Shown here: positions 7,908 through 55,640 of the stretch, one piece after another | How the letters are laid out: each line of letters opens with the position of its first letter | How positions within the stretch are numbered: position 1 is the first letter of the stretch | DNA from: Candidatus Altimarinota bacterium | Lineage (GTDB): Bacteria > Patescibacteriota > Gracilibacteria > JBDHUY01 | Assembly: GCA_039809385.1 (NCBI GenBank) | Contig: JBDHUY010000011.1 | Location: 2,132-66,131 of the forward strand | DNA length: 64,000 nt | Reading direction: 5' to 3' | The notes under the pieces: generated by a model | Told to the model about the DNA's origin: nothing | What the model saw: the letters and a program-made list of their open reading frames with translations, nothing else | The model's database searches: none | Translations under genes and position numbers: made by a program

Positions 7908-7989
7908 AGAAAATTCTTAATACCAAAATCCAAATGTCAAAAGAAATCCCAATATCAGAGTTCAAACAGATTCATAGCTATAGGTAGAC

Positions 7990-8725: not shown

Positions 8726-8776
8726 GGGGGGACGGGTATTAGGTATAAAGTATTACGTATTATGTATGGGAACAGG
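8726..8776 (+). repeat. GTAT-heptad element, copy 1
   Basis: gtattag|gtataaa|gtattac|gtattat|gtatggg|aacagg, preceded by a G-run. Confidence 0.8.
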
Positions 8777-8865
8777 AAGAAATCTTATGATGAGGATGAA
8801 AAGCTCAATGACAACGATACAATAACACTTCTAGTCAAAATCTCTGATACGCACTCTATTAAAAT

Positions 8866-14246: not shown

Positions 14247-14323
14247 GCCGCGTTCGTCTAGTGGTCCAGGACATCTGGTTCTCATCCAGAAGATCAGGGG
14301 TTCGACTCCCCTACGCGGTACCA
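14247..14323 (+). tRNA. tRNA-Glu(CUC), CCA encoded
   Basis: Cloverleaf folded by hand: GCCGCGT/ACGCGGT acceptor, 'GTCTAGTGGTCCAGGAC' Glu-type D arm, anticodon loop TTCTCAT, T arm AGGGG-TTCGACT-CCCCT. Confidence 0.9.
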
Positions 14324-14431
14324 TTCTTTGCAAGATGGGAAAAATACCATTCGTAGCTTTAACAAAGCAGGGCTTACTCTTTCCAGAAAGCAACTTTCAT
14401 AGATACTTCGAATGGCACAGCCTTGAAGGCA
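14321..14431 (+). repeat. tRNA-trailer repeat, copy 1 (111 nt)
   Basis: Gapless alignment with 14547..14657: 88/111 identical by hand count. Both copies start at the CCA end of a tRNA. Confidence 0.8.
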
Positions 14432-14472
14432 TAAATTTTGAACTTTGACATTTGGATTTTGATATTTTTTAA

Positions 14473-14549
14473 GGGTGATTAGCTCAGTTGGCTAGAGCGT
14501 TCGCTTGACGTGCGAAAGGTCACAGGTTCGAGTCCTGTATCACCCACCA
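14473..14549 (+). tRNA. tRNA-Val(GAC), CCA encoded
   Basis: GGGTGAT/ATCACCC acceptor, anticodon loop TTGACGT, T arm ACAGG-TTCGAGT-CCTGT. Confidence 0.9.
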
Positions 14550-14657
14550 TTCTTCGCAAAATGCGAAGAATGCCCTTCGAAGCTTTAGCGAAGAAGGGCT
14601 CACGCTTTACAGAACATACTTGCCATAGATGCTTCGAATGGCACAGCCATAAAGGCA
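14547..14657 (+). repeat. tRNA-trailer repeat, copy 2
   Basis: See copy 1. Confidence 0.8.
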
Positions 14658-14681
14658 CGTATCGTCAATGTTCCATAGGTT

Positions 14682-14736
14682 CAGGAAGGGCTCACTCTAC
14701 AGAGATAGTTTAAATAGATGTTTCAAGGAGCCATAC
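14682..14736 (+). repeat. tRNA-trailer repeat, partial copy 3, directly upstream of the GIY-YIG pseudogene
   Basis: 'caggaagggctcactctacagagatag..atagatgtttcaaggagcc' aligns with 'cgaagaagggctcacgctttacagaacat..atagatgcttcgaatggcacagcc'. Confidence 0.6.
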
Positions 14737-14755
14737 TATCGTTACGACCAGTGAT

Positions 14756-14997
14756 ATGTATTACGTATATATTCTACAAAGCCTTGTGGATAATAAAGAA
14801 ATTTATAAAGGCTTTAGTACGGATTTAAAAGACAGAATACAACATCACAACTCAGGAGCGTCAAAGCATACGGCAAGTATAAACCGTGGAAATTGAGATT
14901 TTACGCAGGATTTGAAGAGAAGAGTACCGCATTAGAATTTGAAAAATATCTAAAAACAGCTTCCGGCATTGCGTTCTTAAGAAAACGACTACTATAA
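14756..14997 (+). pseudogene. GIY-YIG nuclease family gene, frameshifted
   Basis: Frame 1 reads MYYVYILQSLVDNKEIYKGFSTDLKDRIQHHNSGASKHTAS.. and stops at 14894..14896. The family continues in another frame from about 14875 (KYKPWKLRFYAGFEEKSTALEFEKYLKTASGIAFLRKRLL*, stop 14995..14997). Confidence 0.75.
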
Positions 14998-15023
14998 TCA
15001 AACGCAAACTCGCATCATATCTT

Positions 15024-15099
15024 GGGGTCGTAGCTCAATGGCTAGAGCACTTCCATGGCATGGAAGGGGTTGAGGGTTCGAGTCCCTTCGACTCCACCA
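15024..15099 (+). tRNA. tRNA-Ala(GGC), CCA encoded
   Basis: Acceptor GGGGTCG/CGACTCC with the G3:U70 Ala identity pair; anticodon loop ATGGCAT. Confidence 0.9.
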
Positions 15100-15153
15100 A
15101 GAAGCACAAGTAAGAAAGCGGGGAAAAATATTTCCTCGTTTTTCTCTGTGGTC

Positions 15154-15208
15154 GGGGAAGGTATAAAGTATAAAGTATGAAGTATTATGTATTACGTATG
15201 GAGACAGG
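15154..15208 (+). repeat. GTAT-heptad element, copy 3
   Basis: ggggaag|gtataaa|gtataaa|gtatgaa|gtattat|gtattac|gtatgga|gacagg. Confidence 0.85.
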
Positions 15209-15223
15209 TCAGTTAAGGATATT

Positions 15224-15349
15224 GACTTTGGACTTTGGACTTTGGACTTTGGACTTTGGACTTTGGACTTTGGACTTTGGACTTTGGACTTTGGACTTTG
15301 GACTTTGGACTTTGGACTTTGGACTTTGGACTTTGGACTTTGGACTTTG
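15224..15349 (+). repeat. Perfect heptanucleotide tandem repeat (GACTTTG)x18
   Basis: 126 nt, 18 identical units, counted directly. It ends 75 nt upstream of the eno ATG. Confidence 0.98.
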
Positions 15350-15389
15350 AACTTCTGTCACAATCTCTTTTCAGCAAGCTGAATTTCAG

Positions 15390-15395
15390 TATAAT
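15390..15395 (+). promoter_or_regulatory. Candidate -10 box (TATAAT) for eno
   Basis: Exact TATAAT 29 nt upstream of the ATG at 15424. No convincing -35. Confidence 0.3.
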
Positions 15396-15423
15396 CGTTT
15401 CGTATTAAAAATTTACCTTTTTT

Positions 15424-16761
15424 ATGGAACTCATCAAAAAAGTACTGGCTCGCGAAATACTCGACTCTCGAGGCAACCCTACCTTGGAAGTTGAATTGGA
15501 AACCGAACATGTGATCGGCCGGGCCTGTGTGCCCAGCGGCGCTTCGACCGGTATTCACGAAGCTCTGGAACTAAGAGATCAGGATCCGAACCGCTATAAA
15601 GGAAAAGGCGTTCTACAGGCAGCTGAGAATGTTAATACCATTATCCGTAACGAACTGATGCGCAAAGACGTACATGTACTCTCTCAGTACGCGCTTGACC
15701 AGCTTTTGATCAAGCTCGACGGCACGCCGAACAAGAGCAAGCTGGGAGCCAATGCGATTCTGGGAGTATCTCTGGCCTTTGCAAAAGCCAAAGCTTTTTG
15801 CGAAAACATTTCTTTATACAAATATTTTCAAAGTCTGATGCTGGATATCCAGTCGCCTTTGGCCAAGGGGAAATATGTCTTGCCGGTTCCGCTGGTCAAT
15901 GTCATCAACGGAGGACTCCACGCCGATTCGGGTCTGGATTTTCAGGAATTTATGCTGGTTCCAACCGGATTTGATACTTGCAGCGAAGCGATTCGCTGTT
16001 CTTGCGAGATTTTTCATACGCTGAAAGATCTGATCAAAAAGATGGGACTCTCCACGGCCGTGGGAGACGAAGGCGGGTTTGCCCCTCAGGTAGGAACAAA
16101 TGAAGATGCGTTAAAATTGCTCGTCATTGCGATTGAAAAGGCCGGCTACAAACCCGGCGAAAATGTATTTTTGGGACTGGACGTGGCAGCATCGAGTTTT
16201 TACGATACGGAGAGTTACGAGTATGTCCTGAAAAGCGGACAAAAAGAGTTACGTCTGATTTCAGCCGAAATGAAAAAATACTACGAATACCTGATCGAAA
16301 AATATCCGCTTATTACGATCGAAGATCCGTTCGCCGAAGACGACTGGGAAGGTTTTAACGATTTTACCCAAGCGGTAGGACACAAAGTACAGATCGTAGG
16401 AGACGATCTGTTTGTTACCAATCCGCAACGTATTAAGACAGGCATCGAACATAAAAGCGCCAACTCGGTGCTGATCAAACTCAACCAGATTGGTACGGTT
16501 TCGGAAACGATCCAGGCCATCTCGGATTCCATGCAGAACAACTGGACCACGATCATATCGCACCGCAGCGGCGAGACTGAAGATACGACCATTGCCGACT
16601 TGGCAGTGGGTGTCAGTAACGGCCAGATCAAAACCGGTTCAATGTCGCGTTCCGAACGGATCGCCAAATATAATCAATTGATTCGCATTGAAGAACGGGA
16701 AGGAGTAAACTGCGAGTATCTGGGACGAAACGTATTTTACAATCTCGAACAGTCCTCATGA
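15424..16761 (+). CDS. eno: Enolase (phosphopyruvate hydratase)
   Basis: 'AREILDSRGNPTLEVE', 'SHRSGETEDTTIADLAV', 'IKTGSMSRSERIAKYNQLIRIEE'. Confidence 0.97.
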   Translation: MELIKKVLAREILDSRGNPTLEVELETEHVIGRACVPSGASTGIHEALELRDQDPNRYKGKGVLQAAENVNTIIRNELMRKDVHVLSQYALDQLLIKLDGTPNKSKLGANAILGVSLAFAKAKAFCENISLYKYFQSLMLDIQSPLAKGKYVLPVPLVNVINGGLHADSGLDFQEFMLVPTGFDTCSEAIRCSCEIFHTLKDLIKKMGLSTAVGDEGGFAPQVGTNEDALKLLVIAIEKAGYKPGENVFLGLDVAASSFYDTESYEYVLKSGQKELRLISAEMKKYYEYLIEKYPLITIEDPFAEDDWEGFNDFTQAVGHKVQIVGDDLFVTNPQRIKTGIEHKSANSVLIKLNQIGTVSETIQAISDSMQNNWTTIISHRSGETEDTTIADLAVGVSNGQIKTGSMSRSERIAKYNQLIRIEEREGVNCEYLGRNVFYNLEQSS

Positions 16762-17054
16762 TCCGGCATGTCCAGCATGTCAGCTTGATCCTACTGATAC
16801 TCTGCGCATTTATCTTGTGTGCAGCAAAGCTTTTCGTCTATGCGGGTATATCTCCCATGTTTTGGAATATGGCGCTGGAAGGAGCGGTCTTGCCGCTGGG
16901 TTTTACCACGATCGTCTATTTGACATTGAGCGTTCACCTATTTACGGAAAAATTAACCGAGAACCGGACGGCGATATTAAGCCTTCTCTGGCTTACAGCC
17001 TTGCTTTTAATGGGATTTCTGGTATTTATCCGGCTTTTCTACCAACCCGTATGA
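16758..17054 (+). CDS. Small polytopic membrane protein (hypothetical)
   Basis: Three predicted hydrophobic helices. ATGA overlap with eno at its start and with the lipoprotein gene at its end. Confidence 0.55.
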   Translation: MIRHVQHVSLILLILCAFILCAAKLFVYAGISPMFWNMALEGAVLPLGFTTIVYLTLSVHLFTEKLTENRTAILSLLWLTALLLMGFLVFIRLFYQPV

Positions 17055-17614
17055 AACGACTCATTACGATGTTGTTGCTGGGAATCTCCTTGCTGACAGG
17101 CTGCGGAGGCGGGAACAGCGGCGATATCGGTAACGAAACGCAGACGATCAAAAAAGTACCGATACAGCTCAACGTTCCAAAAGCTTGGCGCGAAGTACGC
17201 CCCGAAGACCTCAAAAACCAGACCGGTGATATCGTTCTGTCGTATGCGGGACTCAACTATACCAACGGGTTTGCCAATAATATCACCGTGACCCGCGAAG
17301 TGCTGAAAGAAGATGTTACCTCTTTGCAATACGCCCAGGCAAATCTGGTAAATAGTGCCAAATTTTTGCAGGATTATCTCAAGCTGGACGATAAAGAAGT
17401 TATGATTCAAGATGTGGATAATAACAATATTCCTACCCGACTGCATACGTTCGAGGCACGGCTGGATCAAGTGGAGCGAAAACGAAAATACATTCAGCTC
17501 TATGCCAGCTACCAAAAAACCGGATATACCATCACGATCGCGGTTCCCTTGGACGAAACCGATCTAGGCAAATATGAAAATCTGATTCGATCGTTCAGGT
17601 TTGTCAAAGAGTAA
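17051..17614 (+). CDS. Lipoprotein (hypothetical)
   Basis: Start re-set to MKRLITMLLLGISLLTGCGGG (lipobox LLTGC). The ORF-track version (16817) overlaps the previous gene. Confidence 0.7.
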   Translation: MKRLITMLLLGISLLTGCGGGNSGDIGNETQTIKKVPIQLNVPKAWREVRPEDLKNQTGDIVLSYAGLNYTNGFANNITVTREVLKEDVTSLQYAQANLVNSAKFLQDYLKLDDKEVMIQDVDNNNIPTRLHTFEARLDQVERKRKYIQLYASYQKTGYTITIAVPLDETDLGKYENLIRSFRFVKE

Positions 17615-21343: not shown

Positions 21344-22219
21344 ATGAACAAAGAAAATTCGATCATTATTTTCAATCAAAAAAACGTGCGGAGACATTGG
21401 GATGCAGATAAGGAACTTTGGTATTTTTCGGTTATCGATGTGATTGAGGTATTAACCGATTCAGCGGCACCAAGGCGGTATTGGAGTGATCTAAAAATCA
21501 AGTTGAAAAATGAAGGAAGTGAAGTGTACGAAAAAATCGTACAGTTGAAATTGACCGCTTCTGATGGGAAAAAACGAGAGACGGACTGTTTCTCGACCGA
21601 AGATCTATTTCGACTCGTTCAATCCATTCCTTCTCCAAAAGCAGAGCCCTTCAAGGTTTGGTTAGCAAAAGCGGGATATGAGCGTGTTGAAGAAACTGAA
21701 AATCCCGAACTATCCATTGATCGAGCTATGAAGACCTATTTGCAAAAAGGATATTCAAAGGAATGGATCAATCAACGGCTGAAAAGCATCGAGGTTCGCA
21801 AAGATTTGACGGATGAATGGCAGGAAAGAGGTGTACAGGAAGGACAGGAATACGCTATTTTGACCGACGAAATTACACGTGCCTGGGCTGGTTTTAGTGT
21901 CAAGGAATATAAAGAGTTTAAGAGCCTCGAAAAACAGAATTTGCGGGATAATATGACCAATCTCGAGCTGGTTTTGAATATGCTTGCCGAAGCCACAACT
22001 ACGGAAATTTCCAAGAAAAAACAACCCACAGGTTTTCATGAGAGTCGTATTGTAGCAAGAGAGGGCGGCGAAATAGCAGGTACTGCACGAAAGGGAATTG
22101 AACAGAAAACCGAGGAGAAAGTTGTCTCAAGGAAGAATGCTAAAGATCTGCTCATAAGAATTAAAGCACAAAAACAGTTGTCCAAAAAATTGAAGGACGG
22201 TAAAGAGAAAGAAGATTGA
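21344..22219 (+). CDS. Bro-N/antirepressor-like (DinD/RhuM-type) DNA-binding protein
   Basis: 'IFNQKNVRRHWDADKELWYFSVIDVIEVLTDS..PRRYWSDLK' is a Bro-N-like N-terminus. The C-terminus is charged and helical. Confidence 0.6.
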   Translation: MNKENSIIIFNQKNVRRHWDADKELWYFSVIDVIEVLTDSAAPRRYWSDLKIKLKNEGSEVYEKIVQLKLTASDGKKRETDCFSTEDLFRLVQSIPSPKAEPFKVWLAKAGYERVEETENPELSIDRAMKTYLQKGYSKEWINQRLKSIEVRKDLTDEWQERGVQEGQEYAILTDEITRAWAGFSVKEYKEFKSLEKQNLRDNMTNLELVLNMLAEATTTEISKKKQPTGFHESRIVAREGGEIAGTARKGIEQKTEEKVVSRKNAKDLLIRIKAQKQLSKKLKDGKEKED

Positions 22220-22240: not shown

Positions 22241-22287
22241 GCGCCGAGGGCCCCGCTTGGGCGCGACGACACAAGGATTTTCAGTGC
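22241..22287 (-). repeat. Degenerate copy of the tRNA-Phe 3' half (anticodon arm + acceptor 3' strand, T arm replaced)
   Basis: The reverse complement has ACTGAAAATCCTTGTGTCG (19/19 identical to the tRNA) and CCCTCGGC (8/8). The T arm is replaced by TCGCGCCCAAGCGGGG. Confidence 0.8.
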
Positions 22288-22294
22288 ATTAAAC

Positions 22295-22369
<75 letters not shown>

Positions 22370-22393
22370 AATAGTTTTTTGATCCTTACGAGT

Positions 22394-22444
22394 AACGACA
22401 CAAGGATTTTCAGTCCTCTGTCCGCTGCGACGGACTACCTCGGG
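22394..22444 (-). repeat. Degenerate copy of the tRNA-Phe 5' half (acceptor 5' strand + anticodon arm, D arm replaced)
   Basis: The reverse complement reads CCGAGGTAG + GTCCGtcgcagCGGAC (a new 5-bp hairpin in place of the D arm) + AGAGGACTGAAAATCCTTGTGTCG (24/24 identical). Confidence 0.8.
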
Positions 22445-24702: not shown

Positions 24703-24771
24703 AGAAAATAAGAATAAAAAGAGATAAAGTCTCCATCTTTATTCTTCATAAGAGGAACGGGAGGGTCAGGC

Positions 24772-24834
24772 TCTTACAGATAAGCGGTTAGCGGCTAGTG
24801 GTCAGCGATTAGCAAACCAAATGCCTATCTGTAA
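24772..24834 (+). repeat. AGCGGTN heptad block bracketed by TTACAGATA/TATCTGTAA inverted repeat, in the rpsO-pnp spacer
   Basis: agcggtt|agcggct|agtggtc|agcgatt|agcaaac. Confidence 0.75.
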
Positions 24835-24846
24835 AAACCTGAGATT

Positions 24847-24870
24847 CGTGACCCGGGGAATCGGGTCACG
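24847..24870 (-). promoter_or_regulatory. 9-bp stem hairpin in rpsO-pnp intergenic leader
   Basis: CGTGACCCGgggaatCGGGTCACG. Its position is analogous to the rpsO terminator / pnp leader processing hairpins of other bacteria. Confidence 0.45.
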
Positions 24871-24937
24871 CCGTTTCTGTGAAAAATAAAGAAAGAAAAA
24901 TATTAAAAATCTAAATACAAAATCTATTGTATCTAGT

Positions 24938-24992
24938 GGATTTTTGAGATTTGAGATTCATTTGGCATTGGGATTTTGAGATTTGAGATTCC
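24938..24992 (+). repeat. Direct repeat of GATTTTGAGATTTGAGATTC (2 copies, 33-nt spacing)
   Basis: ggatttttgagatttgagattc atttggcattgg gattttgagatttgagattcc. Confidence 0.85.
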
Positions 24993-25007
24993 TGGCAACG
25001 GCAGGCT

Positions 25008-38515: not shown

Positions 38516-40813
38516 TCATTCTACCCCTACCTGCTCACTAAACTGACTACTGATATTATCCTTACTCGTAATCGTCAGTACCACCATGTACGTTCCAGGA
38601 GTCGTAAAAACATGCGTCGGCTTACGGTCGGTAGAAACCGTACCGTCGCCAAAATCCCAGAAGTATTTAGCGATAGGACCATTCGACTCGGTCGGATCAA
38701 ACACCACGCTCAGCGGCGCCGCTCCGGTTTTTACATTGGTTTTAAAGCGAGCCACCACCGGAACCTCGGAGACAACGATATCCTGCGTGGCGGTCTCTTT
38801 TTTGGCATCGTTGGTAAAAACGGTGAGCTGTACTTTATAAACCCCTACCTGCGCAAAGGTATACTGTATCTGCGCCCCGTAGATCTTGGGCGGCGTTCCG
38901 TCGTCAAAATCCCACTGATACTGCGTAATCGTCCCGCCGTTATAGCGCGAAGCCGAAGCGTCAAAAAGAACAGTTAACGGCGCCGCTCCCGAAAGAGGGC
39001 TGGCTTTGATAATCGCCTCCAGAGGTTTGGCTTTGGTTTTAATCAAAATAGTCTGGGACACCTCGTTTTGCTGCGCATCCACAACTTTGAGCGTAACGGT
39101 GCGCTCCCCTTCCTCATAAAAAGTCTGCACGTCAGGCTTGGCGCCCCTGGTCTCGAAATTGCCATCGCCGTCAAAGTCCCACTGATAATCCACGATATCG
39201 TTATCCTTGTCGGTCGAGGCCGAAGCGTCAAACGTCACCGCTAAGGGCACGCTGCCTTCGATCACGGCTCCGCTTGCCCCCTGCTTGAAACTCGGCGTGG
39301 TTTTCAGCTGAATCACCGGCGACGAAGTTTTGCCCTTTACTATGATATCGACCGAAGACGATCCCTGATTGGATTTGTCGTCGGTAAGGGCGAGATTTAC
39401 TTTATAGGTACCCGGTTTTTTAAACGTATGGGTCGCGGTCACCGTCTTCTCCCGCAGAGTATTATCGCCAAAATCCCATTCGTATTTAACGATTTTACCT
39501 GCCGGACTGCGCGATTCGGAGGCATCGAAATTTACAGTCAGCGGGGCATCCCCTTCCATCGGAACTGCCAGAATTGAGGCTTTGACAGTATCGTCGCGTA
39601 CGCCGGTGATCGTAATGACTTTTTCGGCTGTATTGTACTTTTTATCGCGATTTTCAACCCGTAAACGCACCGTATAGGTTCCGATTGTCTCGAACGTATA
39701 GGTAAGCTTGGGCGTTGTACCCTCGTTAAAACGGTTATCGCCGTCGATCTCCCAGGCATACGTGACATCTTTAGGGTCCTGGCTGTTGGGATCGTAAGAC
39801 TCTGAGGCGTCTAATGTTACTGTCAGAGGTGCCTCGCCCTTGTCTTTATCGACGTTGATGACGGCTACCGGCAACAAATAGGCAATCGATATGTTCTTTT
39901 TGAATTGTTGCGTTTTTTCTTCTCCTTTGTTATCAACGGCGGTAATCGTGAGGGTAACCGGATAATTCCCGGCTTTAAATGTTTTGTCGTAATTCCAGCG
40001 CTCTTCCTTGCCGCCGATCCGGTCGCTCTTGCCGTCGCCGGTAAAATCCCAGTCGTACTTTACGATCTCGTAACCGCGGGTAAGTTTATTTTCCAGATTG
40101 GAGGCGTCAAAAATGAGTTCGATGGGCGCGGTGAGACCGGTCGTGACAGCGAGAGGTTCACGCGTTTGCGCATTATAGACCACGATATCCCCTTGAATAG
40201 CCGAATTGCCATCCACCCGTACCTGTCCGATACTGAAAAACGCAAACACCCAGATAACGATATCGACCAGCAGAATCAGGGTTGTAATAAAAATGGCAAT
40301 CGTGGTTTTTCGTTTTCCGGCCTTGTCGTCCTTGTGGGTCAGAATACGACGAAAAATATTGACCACGACAGCGATCAGCAGCAGCATCGAAAAGAATCCG
40401 AAGCTGATATTGACCAGGCTGCTCAGCAGATTTTTGACTGCGGCCGGATCCAGGCCGAGCTGTTTAAAGAAAGGATTGTTCGGATCGCCGTTAAACGCGA
40501 ACACCGAGAGTAAAACGAACAAAACGAAGAGAAAAGCGAATAATCCGAAACAGCCCAAAAAGAAACCGGCTCCGATCTTCTTGCCCTTGACCACTTTTTT
40601 CCCGGCAGGCCTGGTCTGGTTTGGCGCAGCTTGAGTTGCCGGAGTTTCTGTCATAGGCTGAGTCGGTTGAGAAGAAGCAGCATTGGTAACAGGAACAGAT
40701 GTATTAACCTGAATATCCTCTGCCAACGGACCGATATTGTTGGTACCGGGAACGGTATCACCAGAAGCAGGCTCTGGATTTTGAGGCGGAGGATTGGGAG
40801 TAGGCGTATCCAT
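38516..40813 (-). CDS. PKD-repeat membrane protein (disordered N-tail, 3 TM, six PKD domains)
   Basis: Six 'Y.W[DE][FI][DGT]' PKD cores: YDWDFTGDG, YAWEIDGDN, YEWDFGDNT, YQWDFDGDG, YQWDFDDGT, YFWDFGDGT. Pro/Thr/Gln-rich N-terminus. TM segments GFFLGCFGLFAFLFVLFVLLSVFAF and others. Confidence 0.85.
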   Translation of the reverse strand: MDTPTPNPPPQNPEPASGDTVPGTNNIGPLAEDIQVNTSVPVTNAASSQPTQPMTETPATQAAPNQTRPAGKKVVKGKKIGAGFFLGCFGLFAFLFVLFVLLSVFAFNGDPNNPFFKQLGLDPAAVKNLLSSLVNISFGFFSMLLLIAVVVNIFRRILTHKDDKAGKRKTTIAIFITTLILLVDIVIWVFAFFSIGQVRVDGNSAIQGDIVVYNAQTREPLAVTTGLTAPIELIFDASNLENKLTRGYEIVKYDWDFTGDGKSDRIGGKEERWNYDKTFKAGNYPVTLTITAVDNKGEEKTQQFKKNISIAYLLPVAVINVDKDKGEAPLTVTLDASESYDPNSQDPKDVTYAWEIDGDNRFNEGTTPKLTYTFETIGTYTVRLRVENRDKKYNTAEKVITITGVRDDTVKASILAVPMEGDAPLTVNFDASESRSPAGKIVKYEWDFGDNTLREKTVTATHTFKKPGTYKVNLALTDDKSNQGSSSVDIIVKGKTSSPVIQLKTTPSFKQGASGAVIEGSVPLAVTFDASASTDKDNDIVDYQWDFDGDGNFETRGAKPDVQTFYEEGERTVTLKVVDAQQNEVSQTILIKTKAKPLEAIIKASPLSGAAPLTVLFDASASRYNGGTITQYQWDFDDGTPPKIYGAQIQYTFAQVGVYKVQLTVFTNDAKKETATQDIVVSEVPVVARFKTNVKTGAAPLSVVFDPTESNGPIAKYFWDFGDGTVSTDRKPTHVFTTPGTYMVVLTITSKDNISSQFSEQVGVE

Positions 40814-40940
40814 AACAGGGAGAAAATAATGTAGAATCAGGAAGTTAGAATCAAGAATCTAAAAGCATGGCAGAATAATAAGAGAAATTCATGGAAATTG
40901 ATGGAAATTGGTAAAAATGTGTTGCAGGTAATCGTACTTT

Positions 40941-41115
40941 GGGCTGTCAGCGGCCAGTGATCAGCGGTCAGTGGCGGGCCATTAGCATTCATACATCATA
41001 CATCTGTTCTCTTAACTCCTGTCTTGCTGTTGTCAGTCGTCTGTAGGCTGTAAGCTGTCAACGTCAATCATATTCCCTACTCCTAACTCCGTTCTCCCAA
41101 CTCCTGTCTTGCTCC
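40941..41115. repeat. Continuous heptad-register spacer (about 24 units)
   Basis: tcagcgg|ccagtga|tcagcgg|tcagtgg|cgggcca|ttagcat|tcataca|tcataca|tctgttc|tcttaac|tcctgtc|ttgctgt|tgtcagt|cgtctgt|aggctgt|aagctgt|caacgtc|aatcata|ttcccta|ctcctaa|ctccgtt|ctcccaa|ctcctgt|cttgctc. Confidence 0.85.
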
Positions 41116-41119
41116 CCGA

Positions 41120-44100
41120 TCACTCCGAGTGAAGCGAAGAGTCTGTCTCCTGCCCATGCTTATTGGGCCCATTATACGGCAAATTCGGTTTCTTTTGAAA
41201 GGGCTTTGCACCGAACTTTTTATAGGGAGGAGTTGGGCGAGTAAACGGCCGTTGAGAGGAAGAAAGCTGTTTCGTATTGTTATTATTCCCGGGCGGCAGT
41301 TCGGGGAAATTTTGTCCGGGCGGCAGTTCCTGCTCGGCGAAGCGTCCTTTGATTTCGGGAGTATTGAAGTTCGGTTTCGGCGGAAACTTTTTAGGATAGG
41401 GTTTATACGGTTTTTTTTGAAATGGCTTTTTTGACTTCCACGGTTGCGAGGATGTTGGTTTCGACACAGGTTTTTGCGCTTCGGGGGAAGATGGCACCTC
41501 AGGCAAAGTAGTCTCGGAAACCGGGGGGAGATTTGCATCTACGACAGGTGCAGGAGGAGGCAGGGCATCCGGTGTACCTGCAGTACCGGTCGGCTGGTCT
41601 GCACTGTCTGCAACAAGAGGTTCAAACGGAGACGTGGCAATGCCGGAAGTAGGCGGCAGGGAATCGGAGTTGAGAGATCGATCTGGAACAGATGACGCCG
41701 GTTCAGTAGGCGTCAAAAAATCAGGTATGGCGGCATCGGCCGGTTGAGAGACTGGCAGAGGTGTAGGAGGAAATATGCCAAAAGGATCGTCGTTAACAGT
41801 AGGAAAGGAAGAACCGGCAACGGCAGGCGAATCTGAGAAGGAGGGCATGGCCGGAGTTTGAGCAGATGTTGGAGATACTACCCCAGCGAAAGGATCTGGG
41901 GTTGTCGAAGAAGAGGACGTCGAGGCTGCAGGTTGATCTCCGAAAATATCGATATCAAACGGAGAGGCCGGAACACTCGGATTAGACGGGGCAGGATCTA
42001 AGAAAGAGGGAGTAACCGCGGCTGAGGTGGCAAAAGGATCGACGGCTTGCGGAGGAGATGCCGGAGGGTTCTGATTTTTATCGGTACTTCCGAAAATATC
42101 AATATCAAAGGGCGATGGAGATGGAGGCGCGGGAGTATCAAGAAACGTAGAGGGTGTTGGCGGCAACGCCGAACCGAACGGATCGGATGCAGAAATAGAC
42201 TGCGGATCACTCGCACTCGGTCCGGATGAAAAGATATCGGTGTCGAAAGGAGAAGCAGGGCTTGCGGAAGACGTCGGATTCGGGACAGATGTATTCAGAA
42301 AATCAGGCTGGGGCGAAGCAGCAGCTCCAAATGAGCCGGTTTGCTGGTTGGAAGAACCGAAAATATCAATATCAAAGGGCGAAGGTGTTTGCGAAGGGTT
42401 TCCTGTCGCTGCGGATAGTGAAGGTGAAGGTGATGGTGTTGACGCAGCAAATGGATCGCCCGGTGCAGAAGGCTGCGAATTATTTCCCGGTCCGCTTTGA
42501 GAAAAAATATCCGTATCGAAAGGAGAAGAGGCGCTGATTCCGGGAGTAGGCGCATCCCCAAAAGGAGTTGCTCCGGAGGCGACAGGTGGATCTAAAAAGG
42601 AAGGCAAGCTTGCGGAATCGTCGGGAGACGTGCCGGGAGACGGCGGGGAGAAATCCAGAAAAGACGCTGTAGGCGGCGTGCCAGACTCTGGGGAAACAAC
42701 AGGATTTGCAGCAGGCGGAACTGTCCCTTCACTCGAATCAGTCGCTCCTATCTGAAGCCAATCGGGCATCTGGCCTGCCGAAGCCTGAGGAGGTTCGGCA
42801 GGGGTCGCGGGAGCTGGAGGCTCGGCAACTGGTTCGAAGTTCCCATCGGGAGAAGGAATCGGTGTAACGTCGATGACCGAAGGTGGGGTACTCTTGGGAG
42901 GTTCGGGCTTCGAAGATGCCTGAGCTTGGTCGCCTTCGTCTTTTTTACCTGGCCTGAATCGAGAGATCCAACCGGTTACCATACCCCGCAAATCCAGAAT
43001 AAACTCTTCAAAATCGAGATCTTCCCGGTTGGTAATACGTTTATACGCTATAAACGAAACAAACAGCACGATTCCCAGAAACAGGAAAATGCCGATAATC
43101 CAAAGCGCGAACTGCAAAATACCGAAGAGAAAGGACAAAAACAGATTTTCCCCTGCCGGTGCGGGTGATGAAGGGCCTTCTGCTGCTGCTCCGTTTTGAT
43201 TCTCGTTGGTAACAGTGCCCGGTTCCGCATTAAGATTGTCATTGGTATTGGCAGTTTCGGGAGCATTGAGGTTTAGATTAGCATCGCCGTTCTGATTAGA
43301 ATTAGCCGTAAGCACGGGAGTCAGAGAGTCGGCAATCACCAAAAGTACGTTACCTACTTGCTGTTTGGCATCGTCAGGTAATTTCTGACTTTCGGCAACA
43401 GCCGTGCGAGTCTCGTCCAAAGCCTGGGAAACCGCGGCAGCATCGATTCCGTAATTCGACTTAAGCGATATCAGCGCTTTATTGACTTTTATTTTGGTCA
43501 AAGGTTCGGCCTCGGCAATAATATTTTTGATACGCTGAATCGAAGAATCGATATCGATAAACGATTCTTTCAGGTCTAAAATGTTCTGGATATTACCGAC
43601 CAGACGGTCTCTTTGTTCTTGAGTAAGCTGTTCTGCGCGCAGGACCAGCTCCTTGGCCTGTGTCAGTGCGTCCTTGTCACCGCGGGATAGGAGTTCGCGG
43701 ATCTGGTTCTGTAGCTCCTGGGACAGAGAACTCTGCGAGATGGCCGTAACAGCATCGTCGAGATTTTTATTGATAATTTCGGTTTTGGAAGGCTGCGGAT
43801 TAGCATTGAGATTGGCATTTTCGGGCAGGACGACCGCGTCGTCGAAAATAATGGGAACCGTTACCTGATCCATGATATTGTTATCGCCGACAACGGTAAG
43901 CTGTACCTCGATCGGCTGAGGCAAAAAGGTATACGATATGCCCGAACCATTGGTAAAAGAAAGGGTATTTTTATTGTCGATATCGTTATTTTTGATACCG
44001 TCTCCGTCGCTATCCTGAAAAACATTGCGATCGATGCGGTATTCGCGGATTTTACCGATCGAATAACCGCCAAAGAACGTTACCTTGTTTTTTTCACGGG

Positions 44101-47100
44101 TGAGGTGAATCTTCCGGTCAAGTTCATTTACTTCGGGGACGGTAATCAATACAGCCTGTAACGATTTAGACGGATCAAGTTGGACATTCTTAGGCAACTG
44201 CCCTTTGACCAGCGTAACGGTTCGAACTACGTTGTCTTTTATTCCTCCTTTGCCCGTGACGTCGAGTCGCACCTGATAGCTGCCATAGTCGTTAAACGTA
44301 AATTGAGGATTTTCCTCCTGGCTGTCTTTGTCATTTTGAGCGCTGCCATCACCGTCGCTGTCACGCGAAAGATCGAAGTCCCAAGTATAAGAAAGAGGGG
44401 CAGGGCCGCTGGAATTATTGAGAAACAGAACAGTTTTATCGACCTGAGTAAACAGAAAAGCGGCAGTGGCAATACTTTCGGAACGGGGGTTAATCAATAC
44501 CGAAACGTTGCCCTTGTTGCTCAATCCTTGATATTCGACCCGGGCAGTCACATTGTAATTTCCCGGAGTATCGTACACTCGCGTGACATAAGCCCCCGAC
44601 GTCGTATCTTCGAAAGTTCCGTTCCCGTCAAAGTCCCAGGAAATCCGGGCATCGGGAACCGGTTCGCCTTTCGCGTTCCGACCGATCGCGGTAAACTGAA
44701 CCGCTTCGCCAGCCTTGACGCTGGTTTTATTAACGCTGACCTCTACCTGCAGGGGCTCGTTAGCACGGTTTGTTACGGTCAATACTCCGGTATTTTCGCC
44801 CAGCACATCATCGCTCCGCACAACCGCCCCCTCGTTATCGGTCATTTCGACGACAAAACGATAGGTAACGCTCTGACCGCCAAAACCGCGCGTAGGAATA
44901 TTAAACGTGGTAGAAGGAGTGGTAGTAGTACGCACGCTCAGATTTTCTTCGGTACCGTTTTCGACATAAAACCATTTATACGAAACGATTTTGCCGTCAC
45001 GGTCGGTTGCCCCCACGGCACGCACGGCGACTTGCACCGGAGTCAATAGCGACGCAGGCGCGTCCAATACCAGATCGGTGAGCTGAGGAGGCCGGTTGCG
45101 TACAGCGACCAGAAGGGGCGAAGCACTGGCAGTTTTACCCGAATCTCTGTCGGTAATCGTAAGTTGTACCGAAAAACAAGTATTGCCGGACACGTCGTTA
45201 AAACGGTGCGTAATCGTTTTTTTGGTACTGACGGTTCCGTCGCCGAAATTCCAGGAATATTCCAGAAAGCGGCTGGAGCCGTCACGGTTGATAGCACGCG
45301 AAGCGTCAAAACTGGGATTATCGTTACGGGAAATCAGGAGCCCCGGCCCGCCGTTACACAAATTAGGCGTAAGCGGTAACATTTCACCGTTCAAACTATA
45401 GTCGATCAAGGCTACGGGGCTGTCGGCTTCTCCGACATACACATTGGTCGTGGTCGTAGTATCGTTATTATCTTTGTCAAAAACGGTAACTTTGACAGGG
45501 TAAACCCCGGCTGTCTTGAAACGATAGGTATATTGCGTTTTATCCGTCTGCTCTTTCTGTTCACCGAAATCGTAAAGATAAAAGATGGCACCGGGAGCAT
45601 TGACTTTGACGGTAACGTCTTTGCCAACCTGAGTGACCGGCGGATCGATCGTGACATCGGCGCTGAGTACTGATGTAATCGAGACAGTCTGCTCCCGCTC
45701 CACGAAATTTTGCGAAGAATCGGTCACGCGTAATTTTACACGGTATTCTTTGGCTGCCGGAAAACGATATTCTCCCCGGCTGCCGGCCTCGTTCGTATTT
45801 TCCAGCGTAACCGGTGTACCATCTACCAGCCAGGTAAACGAGAGCGTTTCATTTTGATCGGGATCATAAGAATTAGTCGCGTCAAAGACAAACTGATTTG
45901 GATGTCCGACATCTTTCTGTTTGAGAGACAAAGTAACAACCGGCGGCTTGGAAGTCACTTTGACTTGACGAGTATCCTGAACGGTTTTGCCGTCATTATC
46001 CGTGACTTGGAGCAAAGCCGTATAGACACCCGGCGTCTCGAATTTGTAAGTAAAGCTTTCTTCTTTCGTCTCGCGCAGAACTTCACCCGCTCCGGTCGTG
46101 ATTTTCCAGCTGAGCGAATTGACTCCGCTGGGGATCTTTGACGTATTGGCGGCAAAACGGAACGTCGTATCGGTAGTACCTTCTTGGGGGGTAATTGTGG
46201 CCGAGGCGATCGCATCGGCCACCTCGACCGTTATACTTTTGACGATCTTTTGATTTCCGGTATCCGTGAACTGGACCGCAACCTGGTAACGACCGACTTT
46301 GTTATATTTATGCGTTATCGAAACCGGCGTTCCGTTAAAACTCTGACGATTACTGCCATCGCCAAATTCCCAGTCGGTTTTGGCGATATCGAGTCCCACG
46401 GTCGAGCTGGTGCCGGCAGGATCGAAGAGCAGCCCGTCCTGAGCTTCTTTGAGGGTTACTTTGACGAGATCTTCTTGGGTAACATCGACTTGATTGATTT
46501 TTAGCTGAACTGTCGCCAGGGGTGCTTCGGCTTTGACGCTGATGGTAGCATCCCCGGGCAAAACGACACTGTCGCCGCTGGCACTCTTGACTTCCAGATG
46601 CACCACATACGTATTAGGAACCCGAAAGGTTTCCGAGACGTTGGCACCGTTTCCTAAGTCGCGGCGCTGCCCGCTGGAATCGAGATACCACCAGCTGTAA
46701 TTGTTCGTAGGAATCGTATTGTTGGTCGGATCGGAAGAAGAGGCTCCGTTAAAGAGAACAGTGAGCGGAATTGGCCCGGAGCTTTTACTGGCATTGATTA
46801 CCGCACGCATCTGAGGCAGTTTGACTACCTGCTGCTTGAGAGTCTCGATTTTGGTTTGAATGTCACGACCGGTCGAAGAAGAAGGACTTTGCTGGTAAGT
46901 CTGCAGTGCGTCGTCCAGTTCCTGAGCAGCTTGTCCTGCCTGAGAGGTAGGAGGTAATTGTTGAATGATCGGCTGAAGTTGCTCACGATAACGGTCGATA
47001 ATTGTTTTGGATTCGCTTTGGGGACGAGAGCGTAACTCTTGCAACAACTGGCTCAAAATCCGATCCAAATCCTGGGCGGTATTACCGGTAGCGCTGGTAA

Positions 47101-47986
47101 CTCCCCCACTCGAGGAAGTTCCCTGACCGGCATTTAACAATTGTTCCAGTGCGTTCAAAGCTTTTTTCAGATCGTCACTATTTTGAGGACTGGGATTGGT
47201 CTTGAATTTGTCGAGCGCCTGTAAAACCGCCTGTAACTGCTGGGCCGACGCATTCTGGAGCGACGAATCAAGTTGCTTTATGGTAGTCTGTAACTGAGTT
47301 TTAAGTGCGTCGATTTCGCGTTCGAGAGTACCGGTATCGGCGGGCGGATTATTGACGGTGTTATAAATATTATTAATCGTGGGTGCGGCCGGATTGCTGC
47401 CAGTACCGCTACTGCTCCCCGAGGAGCTGGAAGAAGAAGACGATCCGCTTCCCGAAGAACCTGAAGAAGAGCTCGAGGCATTTGAGCCCGAAGAAGAGCT
47501 TGAACTGCTGGTGTTGGTAGAAGTGCTACTACCGGATGGCGGACCGTCGATAACATTGACGAAAAAATTGACGATAGCATAGGAGATCAGAATAATCACG
47601 ATGCCGACGCCGGTAAACACGATCGTCTTTTGAGATTTCTTGACCTCGCCGTCGTTGCCGGCAAAGGCTACCATGCGGAACCCGGCGTAGATTACGATAA
47701 CGACCGCCAACAGCCCCAGAAATGTCAGAAAATAGTTGATGATCGTGGTGACGGCTTTGCGAATCTCGTCGTTTTTTCCCTGTTCGCAAATCGTCGGAAA
47801 TTTCACGCAATCTTCTTCTTCAAGGCCGGGCCCGGTCGGAACACCGTTAAACTGAGCGGAAGCATGCGGAATATGCAAAACAAAGAGCGTTCCAGCCATC
47901 AGCACTAAAAATAATACTCCCTGCAGGCGCCGAAAAAGCGAGGAAAAACGATTCGACAAGTACTGTGAGTTATAATCAAACGACAT
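41120..47986 (-). CDS. Giant (2288 aa) surface protein: signal peptide, pilin-like hairpin module, Ser-rich linker, coiled coil, about 10 PKD/Ig-like domains, membrane anchor, long disordered Pro/Ser-rich tail
   Basis: Single uninterrupted ORF. N-terminal 'AVTTIINYFLTFLGLLAVVIVIYAGFRMVAFAGNDGEVKKSQKTIVFTGVGIVIILISYAIVNFFVNVI'. PKD cores (DWEFGDGS, YSWNFGDGT, ISWDFDGNG, YTWDFDLS...). TM 'FLSFLFGILQFALWIIGIFLFLGIVLFVSFIAYKRI'. Confidence 0.9.
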   Translation of the reverse strand: MSFDYNSQYLSNRFSSLFRRLQGVLFLVLMAGTLFVLHIPHASAQFNGVPTGPGLEEEDCVKFPTICEQGKNDEIRKAVTTIINYFLTFLGLLAVVIVIYAGFRMVAFAGNDGEVKKSQKTIVFTGVGIVIILISYAIVNFFVNVIDGPPSGSSTSTNTSSSSSSSGSNASSSSSGSSGSGSSSSSSSSGSSSGTGSNPAAPTINNIYNTVNNPPADTGTLEREIDALKTQLQTTIKQLDSSLQNASAQQLQAVLQALDKFKTNPSPQNSDDLKKALNALEQLLNAGQGTSSSGGVTSATGNTAQDLDRILSQLLQELRSRPQSESKTIIDRYREQLQPIIQQLPPTSQAGQAAQELDDALQTYQQSPSSSTGRDIQTKIETLKQQVVKLPQMRAVINASKSSGPIPLTVLFNGASSSDPTNNTIPTNNYSWWYLDSSGQRRDLGNGANVSETFRVPNTYVVHLEVKSASGDSVVLPGDATISVKAEAPLATVQLKINQVDVTQEDLVKVTLKEAQDGLLFDPAGTSSTVGLDIAKTDWEFGDGSNRQSFNGTPVSITHKYNKVGRYQVAVQFTDTGNQKIVKSITVEVADAIASATITPQEGTTDTTFRFAANTSKIPSGVNSLSWKITTGAGEVLRETKEESFTYKFETPGVYTALLQVTDNDGKTVQDTRQVKVTSKPPVVTLSLKQKDVGHPNQFVFDATNSYDPDQNETLSFTWLVDGTPVTLENTNEAGSRGEYRFPAAKEYRVKLRVTDSSQNFVEREQTVSITSVLSADVTIDPPVTQVGKDVTVKVNAPGAIFYLYDFGEQKEQTDKTQYTYRFKTAGVYPVKVTVFDKDNNDTTTTTNVYVGEADSPVALIDYSLNGEMLPLTPNLCNGGPGLLISRNDNPSFDASRAINRDGSSRFLEYSWNFGDGTVSTKKTITHRFNDVSGNTCFSVQLTITDRDSGKTASASPLLVAVRNRPPQLTDLVLDAPASLLTPVQVAVRAVGATDRDGKIVSYKWFYVENGTEENLSVRTTTTPSTTFNIPTRGFGGQSVTYRFVVEMTDNEGAVVRSDDVLGENTGVLTVTNRANEPLQVEVSVNKTSVKAGEAVQFTAIGRNAKGEPVPDARISWDFDGNGTFEDTTSGAYVTRVYDTPGNYNVTARVEYQGLSNKGNVSVLINPRSESIATAAFLFTQVDKTVLFLNNSSGPAPLSYTWDFDLSRDSDGDGSAQNDKDSQEENPQFTFNDYGSYQVRLDVTGKGGIKDNVVRTVTLVKGQLPKNVQLDPSKSLQAVLITVPEVNELDRKIHLTREKNKVTFFGGYSIGKIREYRIDRNVFQDSDGDGIKNNDIDNKNTLSFTNGSGISYTFLPQPIEVQLTVVGDNNIMDQVTVPIIFDDAVVLPENANLNANPQPSKTEIINKNLDDAVTAISQSSLSQELQNQIRELLSRGDKDALTQAKELVLRAEQLTQEQRDRLVGNIQNILDLKESFIDIDSSIQRIKNIIAEAEPLTKIKVNKALISLKSNYGIDAAAVSQALDETRTAVAESQKLPDDAKQQVGNVLLVIADSLTPVLTANSNQNGDANLNLNAPETANTNDNLNAEPGTVTNENQNGAAAEGPSSPAPAGENLFLSFLFGILQFALWIIGIFLFLGIVLFVSFIAYKRITNREDLDFEEFILDLRGMVTGWISRFRPGKKDEGDQAQASSKPEPPKSTPPSVIDVTPIPSPDGNFEPVAEPPAPATPAEPPQASAGQMPDWLQIGATDSSEGTVPPAANPVVSPESGTPPTASFLDFSPPSPGTSPDDSASLPSFLDPPVASGATPFGDAPTPGISASSPFDTDIFSQSGPGNNSQPSAPGDPFAASTPSPSPSLSAATGNPSQTPSPFDIDIFGSSNQQTGSFGAAASPQPDFLNTSVPNPTSSASPASPFDTDIFSSGPSASDPQSISASDPFGSALPPTPSTFLDTPAPPSPSPFDIDIFGSTDKNQNPPASPPQAVDPFATSAAVTPSFLDPAPSNPSVPASPFDIDIFGDQPAASTSSSSTTPDPFAGVVSPTSAQTPAMPSFSDSPAVAGSSFPTVNDDPFGIFPPTPLPVSQPADAAIPDFLTPTEPASSVPDRSLNSDSLPPTSGIATSPFEPLVADSADQPTGTAGTPDALPPPAPVVDANLPPVSETTLPEVPSSPEAQKPVSKPTSSQPWKSKKPFQKKPYKPYPKKFPPKPNFNTPEIKGRFAEQELPPGQNFPELPPGNNNNTKQLSSSQRPFTRPTPPYKKFGAKPFQKKPNLPYNGPNKHGQETDSSLHSE

Positions 47987-50449: not shown

Positions 50450-51526
50450 ATGTTGCTTACTGAATTTGACTACGATTTACCGCCCGAACTCATCGCCCAG
50501 ACGCCCCTGGCCAAAAGAGACGAATCGCGTTTACTGGTTCTTTCCCGTTCGACGGGAGCGATTGAACACTATCATTTTTACGATTTACCCGACATTCTGT
50601 CTTCTGATACGGTTATCGTTTTGAATAATACCAAAGTATTTCGGGCCCGCCTGTTCGGACATTTTTACGAAGGCGAAAAAAGCTCCGAGGTATTTTTGCT
50701 GAAAAAAGTGGGAATCGATCTGTGGCAGTGTCTGTGCCACCCAGGTCGCAAATTTTTTCCGGGAAAAACGATCCGCTTTCTTCCCAATACAAACAATACG
50801 TCTGCGCATAGAACCTTACATGAAAAAGCCGATCGAAAACTGACCGGTACGGTAAAAAGTATTCTGGAAGACGGGAGCCGGGTGATCCAGTTTGATCAAG
50901 ATGTCAGTCCTTTACTAGAATATTACGGCCATACTCCTCTGCCCCCCTATATAAAAACCGAGAGTTCTCTGGAGCGCTACCAAACAGTGTACGCCAAGGA
51001 AAGCGGATCGGTCGCGGCTCCCACCGCAGGTCTTCACTTTACCAGGGAAGTTCTGGAAAAACTAGGGAAAAAGGGCGTTGAAAAGGCGGAAATAACGCTG
51101 CATGTCGGCGCCGGCACGTTTCAGCCAGTAAAGGTAGAAGAAGTAGAAAAACATGTGATGCACTATGAAAACTATACCTTCTCTCCCGAAACTGCCGAAA
51201 AACTGAACCGTTCAAAACAAACCGGCAAAAAGATTCTGGCGGTCGGAACGACCAGTACGCGGGTTCTGGAAAGCTGCGTATCGCTTGACGCGAGAAGCAA
51301 AATTTCTTTTCATGCCCAGTCGGGCCATACCAATCTCTTTATCTATCCCGGATATACCTTTACAGCGGTAGATCACCTTCTGACCAATTTTCATCTGCCC
51401 AAAAGCACGCTGCTCATGCTCGTTTCGGCCTTTGCCGGAAAAGAGCTGATCATGAAAGCTTACGACGAAGCTATAAAGAAGCAATACCGGTTCTTCAGTT
51501 TCGGGGATGCGATGTTGATTTTGTAG
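50450..51526 (+). CDS. queA: S-adenosylmethionine:tRNA ribosyltransferase-isomerase
   Basis: 'FDYDLPPELIAQTPLAKRDESRLLVL', 'AAPTAGLHFT', 'VGTTSTRVLES'. Confidence 0.95.
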   Translation: MLLTEFDYDLPPELIAQTPLAKRDESRLLVLSRSTGAIEHYHFYDLPDILSSDTVIVLNNTKVFRARLFGHFYEGEKSSEVFLLKKVGIDLWQCLCHPGRKFFPGKTIRFLPNTNNTSAHRTLHEKADRKLTGTVKSILEDGSRVIQFDQDVSPLLEYYGHTPLPPYIKTESSLERYQTVYAKESGSVAAPTAGLHFTREVLEKLGKKGVEKAEITLHVGAGTFQPVKVEEVEKHVMHYENYTFSPETAEKLNRSKQTGKKILAVGTTSTRVLESCVSLDARSKISFHAQSGHTNLFIYPGYTFTAVDHLLTNFHLPKSTLLMLVSAFAGKELIMKAYDEAIKKQYRFFSFGDAMLIL

Positions 51527-51578
51527 AAGGGGAAAGCAGGTATAAAGTATGACGTAGCACGTATAATGTATGGGACAG
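51527..51578 (+). repeat. GTAT-heptad element, copy 4 (directly after queA stop)
   Basis: aaggggaaagcag|gtataaa|gtatgac|gtagcac|gtataat|gtatggg|acag. Confidence 0.8.
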
Positions 51579-55061: not shown

Positions 55062-55095
55062 ATTGCTGATCGCTGATCGCTGATCGCTGTTTGCT
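55062..55095 (+). repeat. (GCTGATC)x3.5 heptamer tandem repeat
   Basis: attgctgatcgctgatcgctgatcgctgtttgct. Confidence 0.85.
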
Positions 55096-55109: not shown

Positions 55110-55640
55110 CTACAATTGGAGCTTTCCATTTTCCAAATCCCGTTTGATTCTCAAAAAGATCAATCCTTTCCAGTCGTTTGCCAGTTCCCCTTCCAGGACC
55201 TTATTTTCGAGCTCTTCGAGAGACATCGAAACTACCGTCAGATCTTCGCCATGATCTTTGGCCAATGGAGCGTCTTCCAGCTGCGAGCATACAAACGCGT
55301 AATCGCGCAGAAAGCCGTGATTGCCGCCGCGGGAAGTAGCGTAGAGCTGGATATGCTTTGGCCGTACCCCCAGCTCTTCCTGACATTCCCGCAAAGCCGC
55401 CTCTTCAGGCGTTTCCTCCAAATCCACCAAACCCCCCGGGATCCGCAGACTATACTCATTTTGGGAATGTCGGAATTCGTTCACTAGCAAAATGCGTTTC
55501 TGTGCGTCAAATACGAAAAATTTCACATACGGCCCCTGATCGCACGCCTCAAACGTATGCCACGACCCGTCGGCAAATTGCAGCTCGTAGGTATACATCG
55601 TCATCCGTTTTCCTTCAAAATAAATCCGCTTGTTTTTCAT
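55110..55640 (-). CDS. NUDIX hydrolase
   Basis: Nudix box 'GGLVDLEETPEEAALRECQEELG'. Confidence 0.85.
   Translation of the reverse strand: MKNKRIYFEGKRMTMYTYELQFADGSWHTFEACDQGPYVKFFVFDAQKRILLVNEFRHSQNEYSLRIPGGLVDLEETPEEAALRECQEELGVRPKHIQLYATSRGGNHGFLRDYAFVCSQLEDAPLAKDHGEDLTVVSMSLEELENKVLEGELANDWKGLIFLRIKRDLENGKLQL

Follow-up and report, generated by a model that had tools for sequence, protein, structure and literature searches.

A perfect (GACTTTG)18 array upstream of eno in a contig with heptamer-periodic intergenic DNA

Intergenic heptanucleotide SSRs are over-represented in many bacteria, and the cause given is a combination of polymerase footprint and slippage (Mrazek et al. 2007, as cited in PMC4679880 and PMC4692102). 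Known long SSRs (LSSRs) of this kind include GGGAATC in Xanthomonas and GGGGATT in Nostoc, the latter with 26 copies, and their functions are unknown (PMC4679880, PMC4692102). The same holds for TAACTGA repeats, which occur in Beggiatoaceae, cyanobacteria, and Bacteroidetes (up to 43 copies) (PMC4679880, PMC4692102). Heptamer repeats of Xanthomonas display extensive length variation among close relatives (PMC4679880, PMC4692102).

Three further systems also work with units of seven nucleotides. The only functional case worked out in detail is the (ATCTTTC)11-28 tract of hmw1A/hmw2A in H. influenzae, whose transcription begins at a promoter ahead of the repeats and whose RNA base-pairs with a G-rich segment, giving an RNase III hairpin (PMC12721329). 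The RHH protein omega/ParB of pSM19035 occupies 7-10 contiguous WATCACW heptads at promoters, with one dimer per heptad (PMC9499535). B. subtilis CspB prefers the heptanucleotide GTCTTTG/T on single strands (PMC1904285), and CSPs bind one heptamer each (as cited in PMC4679880).

Here we describe a perfect heptamer array ahead of an enolase gene (eno) and compare it with these systems. The window is the whole stretch of DNA that was analysed, 64,000 nucleotides (64 kb) long, and all coordinates refer to it.

The array and its setting upstream of eno

The features of the eno locus, apart from a GTAT element that is listed further below, are as follows.

15024..15099, + strand: tRNA-Ala(GGC), the upstream neighbour (ARAGORN; Rfam tRNA, 63.9 bits)
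15114..15143, + strand: 13-bp hairpin ending in a T-run, intrinsic-terminator-like, after tRNA-Ala (MFE and centroid structure of 15100-15423)
15211..15223, + strand: non-repetitive spacer of about 13-16 nt between the GTAT element and the array, with no periodicity
15224..15349, + strand: the array, perfect (GACTTTG)x18
15368..15395, + strand: promoter-like site TTTTCA-16 nt-TATAAT, 10/12 matches (promoter scan; a consensus match only)
15424..16761, + strand: eno, enolase, 445 aa (Pfam Enolase_N, E 4e-54; Enolase_C, E 5.5e-125)

The eighteen units are identical, as an exact string test confirms and as a preliminary description of this DNA had claimed. TRF extends the repeat slightly (15224-15354, period 7, 18.7 copies, 99% matches, score 255), since a partial degenerate unit, AACTT at 15350-15354, follows directly after the array. 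A probe of two GACTTTG units that allows two mismatches or fewer finds 17 sites where 0.57 would be expected, every one within the array, and no copy is present elsewhere on either strand of the 64-kb window. The other perfect heptamer runs of the window reach at most 3.6 copies versus 18 at eno, which supports the earlier proposal of a recent slipped-strand expansion.

The array is non-coding: it lies between tRNA-Ala and eno, and the length of its unit is not divisible by 3. With head-to-tail copies far above chance, a non-coding site, and an excess of period 7 in the 64-kb window, it has the properties of a heptanucleotide LSSR. Open reading frames cross the array in all frames on both strands because the GACTTTG unit contains no stop codon. 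One of these frames (15177-15350), a DFGLWTL heptad ORF, was considered as a coding repeat and rejected, as it has no ribosome-binding context.

The preliminary description had also placed everything from 15161 to 15349 in a single 7-nt register, parsing 15161-15223 as GTATAAA, GTATAAA, GTATGAA, GTATTAT, GTATTAC, GTATGGA, GACAGGT, CAGTTAA, GGATATT. The parse is reproduced and the arithmetic holds, but the register has no significance. In register, 23/63 of the upstream positions agree with the array unit, and out-of-register similarity is as good, with shifts of 2 and 6 giving 25 and 23. Only the six GTAT units (15161-15202) and the array are periodic; the 21 nt between them, which had been read as three units, are not repeats. 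The common phase of the GTAT block and the array is a coincidence, because two independent periodic blocks agree with a probability of 1/7.

On the + strand, the order of features is argS, tRNA-Glu, tRNA-Val, a broken GIY-YIG ORF, tRNA-Ala, the hairpin with its T-run, the GTAT block, the spacer, and the array, so that tRNA genes stand between argS and the array. The array is followed by 18 bp, by TTTTCA-16-TATAAT, and, after about 28 nt, by eno, whose MELIK start is also kept in a sister species (L001). The hairpin at 15114-15143 is not listed by a consensus terminator scan. The promoter-like site is the sole match of its kind on the + strand within 14400-15600, and TATAAT-like boxes stand about 30-40 nt ahead of the ATG at other genes of the contig as well. 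Its TATAAT (15390-15395) lies 40 nt past the array end, at the distances from the array and from the eno ATG at 15424 that had been given before, and the promoter scan bears out the view that the array is just upstream of a plausible eno promoter. On this promoter model, the array most likely extends from about -53 to -178 relative to the inferred eno start site.

The scan predicts no site upstream of the array that would transcribe it. Folded as RNA, 15100-15423 is no more stable than shuffled sequence (z +0.87), with the tRNA terminator hairpin alone being stable. Searches of the region against Rfam at the gathering and E<=1 thresholds return no family besides tRNAs, no complementary (CAAAGTC)n partner that could form a hairpin with the array was found, and BLAST of the array region against plasmids gives no match. 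Among the neighbouring ORFs, Pfam matches are limited to argS, the GIY-YIG fragment, eno, and a NUDIX gene; the two small ORFs following eno have no Pfam match, and no DNA-binding regulator gene adjoins the array. The array was also considered as a promoter in its own right and rejected: TTGGAC has only 3/6 matches to the -35 consensus, no -10 follows the TTGACT at the left junction, and the scan lists no site.

Several other repeats are found near the tRNA genes. A 142-nt duplication of 75% identity (14290-14431 and 14516-14657) takes in the 3' portions of tRNA-Glu and of tRNA-Val along with the DNA downstream of each, and a motif common to this region, GAAGGGCTCAC, occurs three times, at 14367, 14593, and 14685. 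A TTTG-family heptamer block of 23 nt, TTTGACATTTGGATTTTGATATT, lies directly upstream of tRNA-Val (14444-14466), with a 96% complementary copy at 7919-7941, 6.5 kb away. The GIY-YIG domain ORF between tRNA-Val and tRNA-Ala (14756-14896; 46 aa; Pfam E 2.9e-08) is truncated or frameshifted.

Heptamer elements and period 7 across the contig

The GTAT block upstream of the array belongs to a dispersed element of ~50 nt, GGGG..-(GTATNNN)5-6-GGGACAG, with six copies in 64 kb. Its consensus is GGGG-N4-6-GTATAAA-GTATGAA-GTATTAT-GTATnAn-GTATGGG-ACAG. A sequence model (R1) built from the six copies recovers exactly those six in the window, at 30-48 bits, and gives a weak match (E 0.004) in the sister species, just past the stop codon of eno. 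The copies are listed here.

8726..8777, + strand: copy E1, antisense to greA (identified by Pfam), its GGGG end abutting the greA ATG at 8725; R1 48.4 bits
8865..8915, - strand: copy E2, beginning 3 nt past the rpoD stop codon; R1 46.1 bits
15150..15210, + strand (R1 match 15159-15209): copy E3, at eno, GGTCGGGGAAG-(GTATNNN)6-GACAG (alignments A1 and A3); 47 bits, E 2.7e-13
51530..51578, + strand: copy E4, immediately past the stop codon of the gene at 50450-51526; R1 45 bits
57795..57837, - strand (R1 match 57795-57832): copy E5, a partial copy of 3 units whose GGGG end abuts the ATG at 57838; 30.3 bits
55858..55909, - strand: copy E6, its GGGGG end abutting the ATG at 55910 (inverted repeats I3, I5, and I14); R1 46.3 bits

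The preliminary description took the GTATnnn units for older arrays that had decayed in place, a view that six dispersed copies with conserved flanks and a conserved unit order contradict. Among the 28 units, positions 1-3 (GTA) are invariant, position 4 is T in 25/28, and positions 5 and 7 vary almost at random. Neutral decay would not be expected to leave such a pattern. Copy E3 has one GTATAAA more than the other copies; this extra unit is a 7-nt slippage event.

The element stands against gene ends. Its three forward copies lie 1-3 nt past a stop codon or, in the case of E3, after the tRNA-Ala terminator. In the three reverse copies the G-run, read as CCCC, touches the ATG of greA, of the gene at 55910, and of a glycosyltransferase gene. 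The two copies in the rpoD-greA spacer, E1 and E2, pair into a hairpin of about 48 bp (z -5.63). Whole-spacer hairpins were considered as a general rule and rejected, as the fold is significant only for rpoD-greA (z -5.6) and not for three other spacers. The GTAT element was not found in viral contigs, which contain only perfect arrays of other GTAT words.

Period 7 is a general property of the contig's intergenic DNA. With 15151-15354 left out, intergenic identity is 0.308 at lag 7 and 0.303 at lag 14, compared with 0.263-0.278 at other lags (z about 6.7), and the coding DNA of the contig has no lag-7 signal. The intergenic DNA of the sister species (SRR33557406; contigs L001 and L205) has the same signal, with z of 6.4. 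Four more distant, family-level relatives have no period-7 signal, and loci of unrelated species show one in only 1/66 cases. Intergenic period 7 is thus contig-wide and clade-specific. The window has two perfect period-7 arrays of at least 3 copies and 0-1 for periods 4-6 and 8-12.

Heptamer quasi-repeats are present in at least a dozen spacers and fall into core families, GTATnnn, TTTGnnn, nnAGCGG, and GGAG/CTCC. The TTTGnnn family includes TTTGAGA at 24943 and 24975, TTTGACA-TTTGGAT-TTTGATA immediately upstream of tRNA-Val, and the eno array itself when read as TTTGGAC. The invariant cores of 3-4 nt (GTAT, TTTG, AGCG, GGAG) hint at selection or protein recognition over pure mutational noise.

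The rpsO-pnp spacer provides a view of how such blocks change. A hairpin core in this spacer, CAGGTTTTTACAGAT ... ATCTGTAAGAGCCTG, is conserved in four relatives (window 24703-25007, - strand; L205 461-734; L206; L208) and is possibly a pnp leader structure. The apical region has heptamer blocks only in the window and in L205. The blocks differ between these two. Such blocks are therefore gained and lost quickly, as insertions and expansions that do not last long in evolution, and their lability between the sister species is visible here.

Two smaller heptamer features were also recorded. A second dispersed element with GGAG/CTCC-core units is present at 41073-41113 and 58783-58823; the copies are 85% complementary, and each lies just past a stop codon, that of a gene for a 2288-aa protein and that of a glycosyltransferase gene. 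A perfect (GCTGATC)x3.6 run at 55065-55089 occupies the 62-nt spacer of two convergent genes, 54358-55047 (+) and 55110-55640 (-).

Start codons of the contig have no evident Shine-Dalgarno sequence. C/T-rich tracts (CCCC, CCTC, CCCT) lie immediately 5' of the ATG, for example at 8725, 10034, 11869, 36806, 55910, and 57838, suggesting that this lineage starts translation in an unusual way. Elsewhere in the window, a 25-nt tRNA-Phe segment occurs in three direct copies (22267-22420), two of them 100% identical and 74 nt apart, adjoining a Bro-N domain gene (21344-22219); the copies look like an att-type duplication from integration at a tRNA. Two ORFs on the - strand, of 765 and 2288 aa (38516-47986), have internal DNA repeats in common (families D4, D5, D8, D9, D15, and D19), suggesting large repeat-domain proteins.

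Relatives, GACTTTG arrays elsewhere, and the assembled length of the array

Metagenome proteins include one enolase at 76% amino acid identity and a handful at 62-65%, and eno identity is at most 58% among 185,579 species genomes (GTDB, one genome per species). For PNPase, the nearest relatives with a name share 55-57% identity and belong to Peregrinibacteria, Patescibacteria, and Gracilibacteria, with others at 67-86%. From these enolase and PNPase identities, the contig is assigned to an undescribed Patescibacteria-like family in a deep-branching, uncultured lineage. The eno locus of the closest relative (L001, 76% aa) has no array and a different upstream gene. An array is likewise missing from the eno loci of the 62-65% relatives, in which the gene order upstream of eno is also different.

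GACTTTG arrays are found in other organisms. Runs of at least 3 copies occur in at least 120 metagenome contigs with a GC content of 35-69%, none of which has a close tblastn match to the source organism, and seven viral contigs contain (GACTTTG)4. Among the matches listed, most arrays have 3-5 copies, and the two longest, with 14 (L098) and 7 (L101), are at contig ends. Many of the GACTTTG contigs also have GACCTTG, GGTCTTT, GAACTTT, or an inverted partner. Within 80 GACTTTG loci, perfect arrays of period 7 number 131 and belong to 32 word classes; each of the periods 5, 6, and 8-12 has 0-2 such arrays, and period 4 has 12. Heptamer arrays are thus widespread in certain genomes and are built from many words, of which GACTTTG is one.

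The contig-end arrays also bear on the length of the eno array. Heptamer arrays break or distort short-read assemblies, and copy numbers in metagenome-assembled genomes need caution. The array at eno could be real and its length set by assembly, in which case the true copy number would be larger or heterogeneous and 18 would be as many units as a de Bruijn assembler working on short reads could get across. A k-mer of 127 is a common maximum in metagenome assembly, and the 126 nt of the array are the largest multiple of 7 below it. The locus is on record in a single assembly, exact-protein look-up of eno, argS, and the NUDIX gene having returned no second one. Unique sequence, however, flanks the array on both sides in a 66-kb contig, and by our reckoning, in a k=127 graph whose nodes are k-mers, collapsing a simple loop would leave 133 nt rather than 126. 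We regard an assembly-set length as unlikely.

A partial second view of the locus comes from the 98-aa gene after eno, which leads to a Logan contig (L209, from SRR27308739) that is 100% identical over 1473 bp to window 15713-17185. The source strain is also present in SRR27308739, because this contig is an independent short-read assembly with full identity over that length. It starts inside eno and does not reach the array.

Origin of the array and comparison with known heptamer systems

The array is probably a heptanucleotide SSR that has been recently and strongly expanded by slippage, in a lineage prone to heptamers, within the spacer upstream of the eno promoter. Strand slippage during replication would have driven the growth of the array, in intergenic DNA that appears to be generally prone to 7-nt repetition. 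The array lies between the tRNA-Ala terminator and GTAT element on one side and the predicted eno core promoter on the other. It would be hypermutable in copy number, and gain or loss of units would shift only the upstream tRNA terminator and GTAT sequences, with the promoter-proximal end staying fixed. The effect on eno is probably small or absent, because everything from about -53 downstream would be unchanged, and no functional upstream site whose distance the array would change is evident. We infer from this arrangement that the array is close to neutral and probably not transcribed.

Some observations pull the other way. The unit is identical at 6/7 positions to the B. subtilis CspB consensus GTCTTTG/T, and the heptamer blocks of the contig keep cores of 3-4 nt. 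Moreover, the eno promoter is a consensus match, and a start upstream of the array would turn the array into a 5'UTR, as in the hmw genes.

A rival proposal is that the array is bound by protein, one per heptamer, with either a CSD/OB-fold protein on the single-stranded or transcribed T-rich strand or an RHH protein on the duplex. For the former, the likeness to the CspB site includes the critical C3, T4, and T6, a single CSD spans 6-7 nt, and CSPs take one heptamer each (as cited in PMC4679880). The mismatch is at position 2, where the array has A in place of the preferred T, and GTCTTTG/T is a binding preference for ssDNA in vitro, not a repeat family. Neither the promoter scan nor the fold gives a sign that the array is single-stranded or transcribed, and a motif scan of the 64-kb window and the relatives' loci found no CSD gene. 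For an RHH protein, the precedent is omega, which binds contiguous 7-bp repeats with one dimer per heptad, and the eno array similarly consists of contiguous 7-bp units near a promoter. It differs from the omega iterons in three respects: cognate RHH and ParA genes are missing next to it, it stands clear of the promoter, and its 18 identical units are far more than 7-10. Closer to the omega iterons than the perfect array is the GTAT element: its 5-6 units are contiguous and keep an invariant core, and its arrangements are direct as well as inverted. The short invariant cores in the contig's heptamer blocks favor recognition by a protein of either kind, but no regulator gene adjoins the array, and arrays of many unrelated words in such genomes fit a mutational bias better than a single specific binder. 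A protein-binding array is, in our estimate, quite improbable.

A contingency locus, phase- or rheostat-variable, would use slippage-driven changes in copy number to tune eno transcription or mRNA fate, as hmw1A/hmw2A do with (ATCTTTC)n. The eno array resembles the hmw tract in its T-rich 7-nt unit, its 18 perfect copies, within the hmw range of 11-28, and its position directly upstream of a gene. The resemblance ends at the mechanism. The array lies upstream of the sole predicted -35, neither in an ORF, nor between promoter elements, nor in a predicted leader; in contrast to hmw, no upstream promoter, pairing partner, or RNA hairpin is predicted (fold z +0.87). The target is a housekeeping enolase, not an adhesin or another surface, host-interaction, or restriction-modification gene. 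Furthermore, the sister species does without an array at eno, and heptamer repeats are scattered over many intergenic regions of the contig rather than placed at selected loci. We therefore give this account little credence.

A broader scheme, equally doubtful in our view, treats the intergenic heptamer modules of this Patescibacteria-like genus (GTAT, TTTG, AGCG, and GGAG cores) as functional sites read unit by unit by a heptamer-spaced nucleic-acid-binding protein, which would act on RNA or ssDNA in the manner of a CSD or on the duplex in the manner of an RHH protein. Paired modules, such as GGGG-(GTATNNN)5...(NNNATAC)5-CCCC-ATG, would zip spacers into hairpins and bring a stop codon beside the next start, in an organism whose start codons on this contig have no evident Shine-Dalgarno sites. 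(GACTTTG)18 would be a runaway TTTG-family module titrating or positioning that protein at the eno promoter.

An expanded SSR remains the reading that we prefer, and as a single locus the eno array matters little. More unusual than the array are its surroundings: a clade-specific heptamer architecture, a GTAT element that borders on stop and start codons, and genes that seem to lack Shine-Dalgarno sites. The window and the sister species together offer a clean comparison for why heptamers expand in some bacteria, whether through polymerase footprint or protein recognition.

Among known repeats, the cyanobacterial STRR share with this contig tandem heptanucleotides scattered in intergenic DNA and several word families per genome. 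They differ in their host, which here is no cyanobacterium, and in their dispersal, as STRR words occur at many loci and GACTTTG at one locus in 64 kb. The array therefore does not fit the STRR, nor, with no promoter overlap and no nearby RHH or ParA gene, does it fit an omega/ParB-type iteron array.

The closest likeness is to the prokaryotic LSSRs. As in these, a perfect head-to-tail 7-nt unit lies in intergenic DNA, heptamers exceed other periods, arrays vary between close relatives, heptamer blocks form inverted pairs, and slippage is the proposed origin. Unlike in known LSSRs, the word is GACTTTG, and many blocks of the contig are quasi-repeats with an invariant core of 3-4 nt instead of copies of one dominant word. 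The host differs too, being an uncultured Patescibacteria-like lineage, a group for which a limited search of the literature turned up no account of heptamer repeats. Long intergenic heptanucleotide repeats are an already described class, and the eno array adds a case to it.
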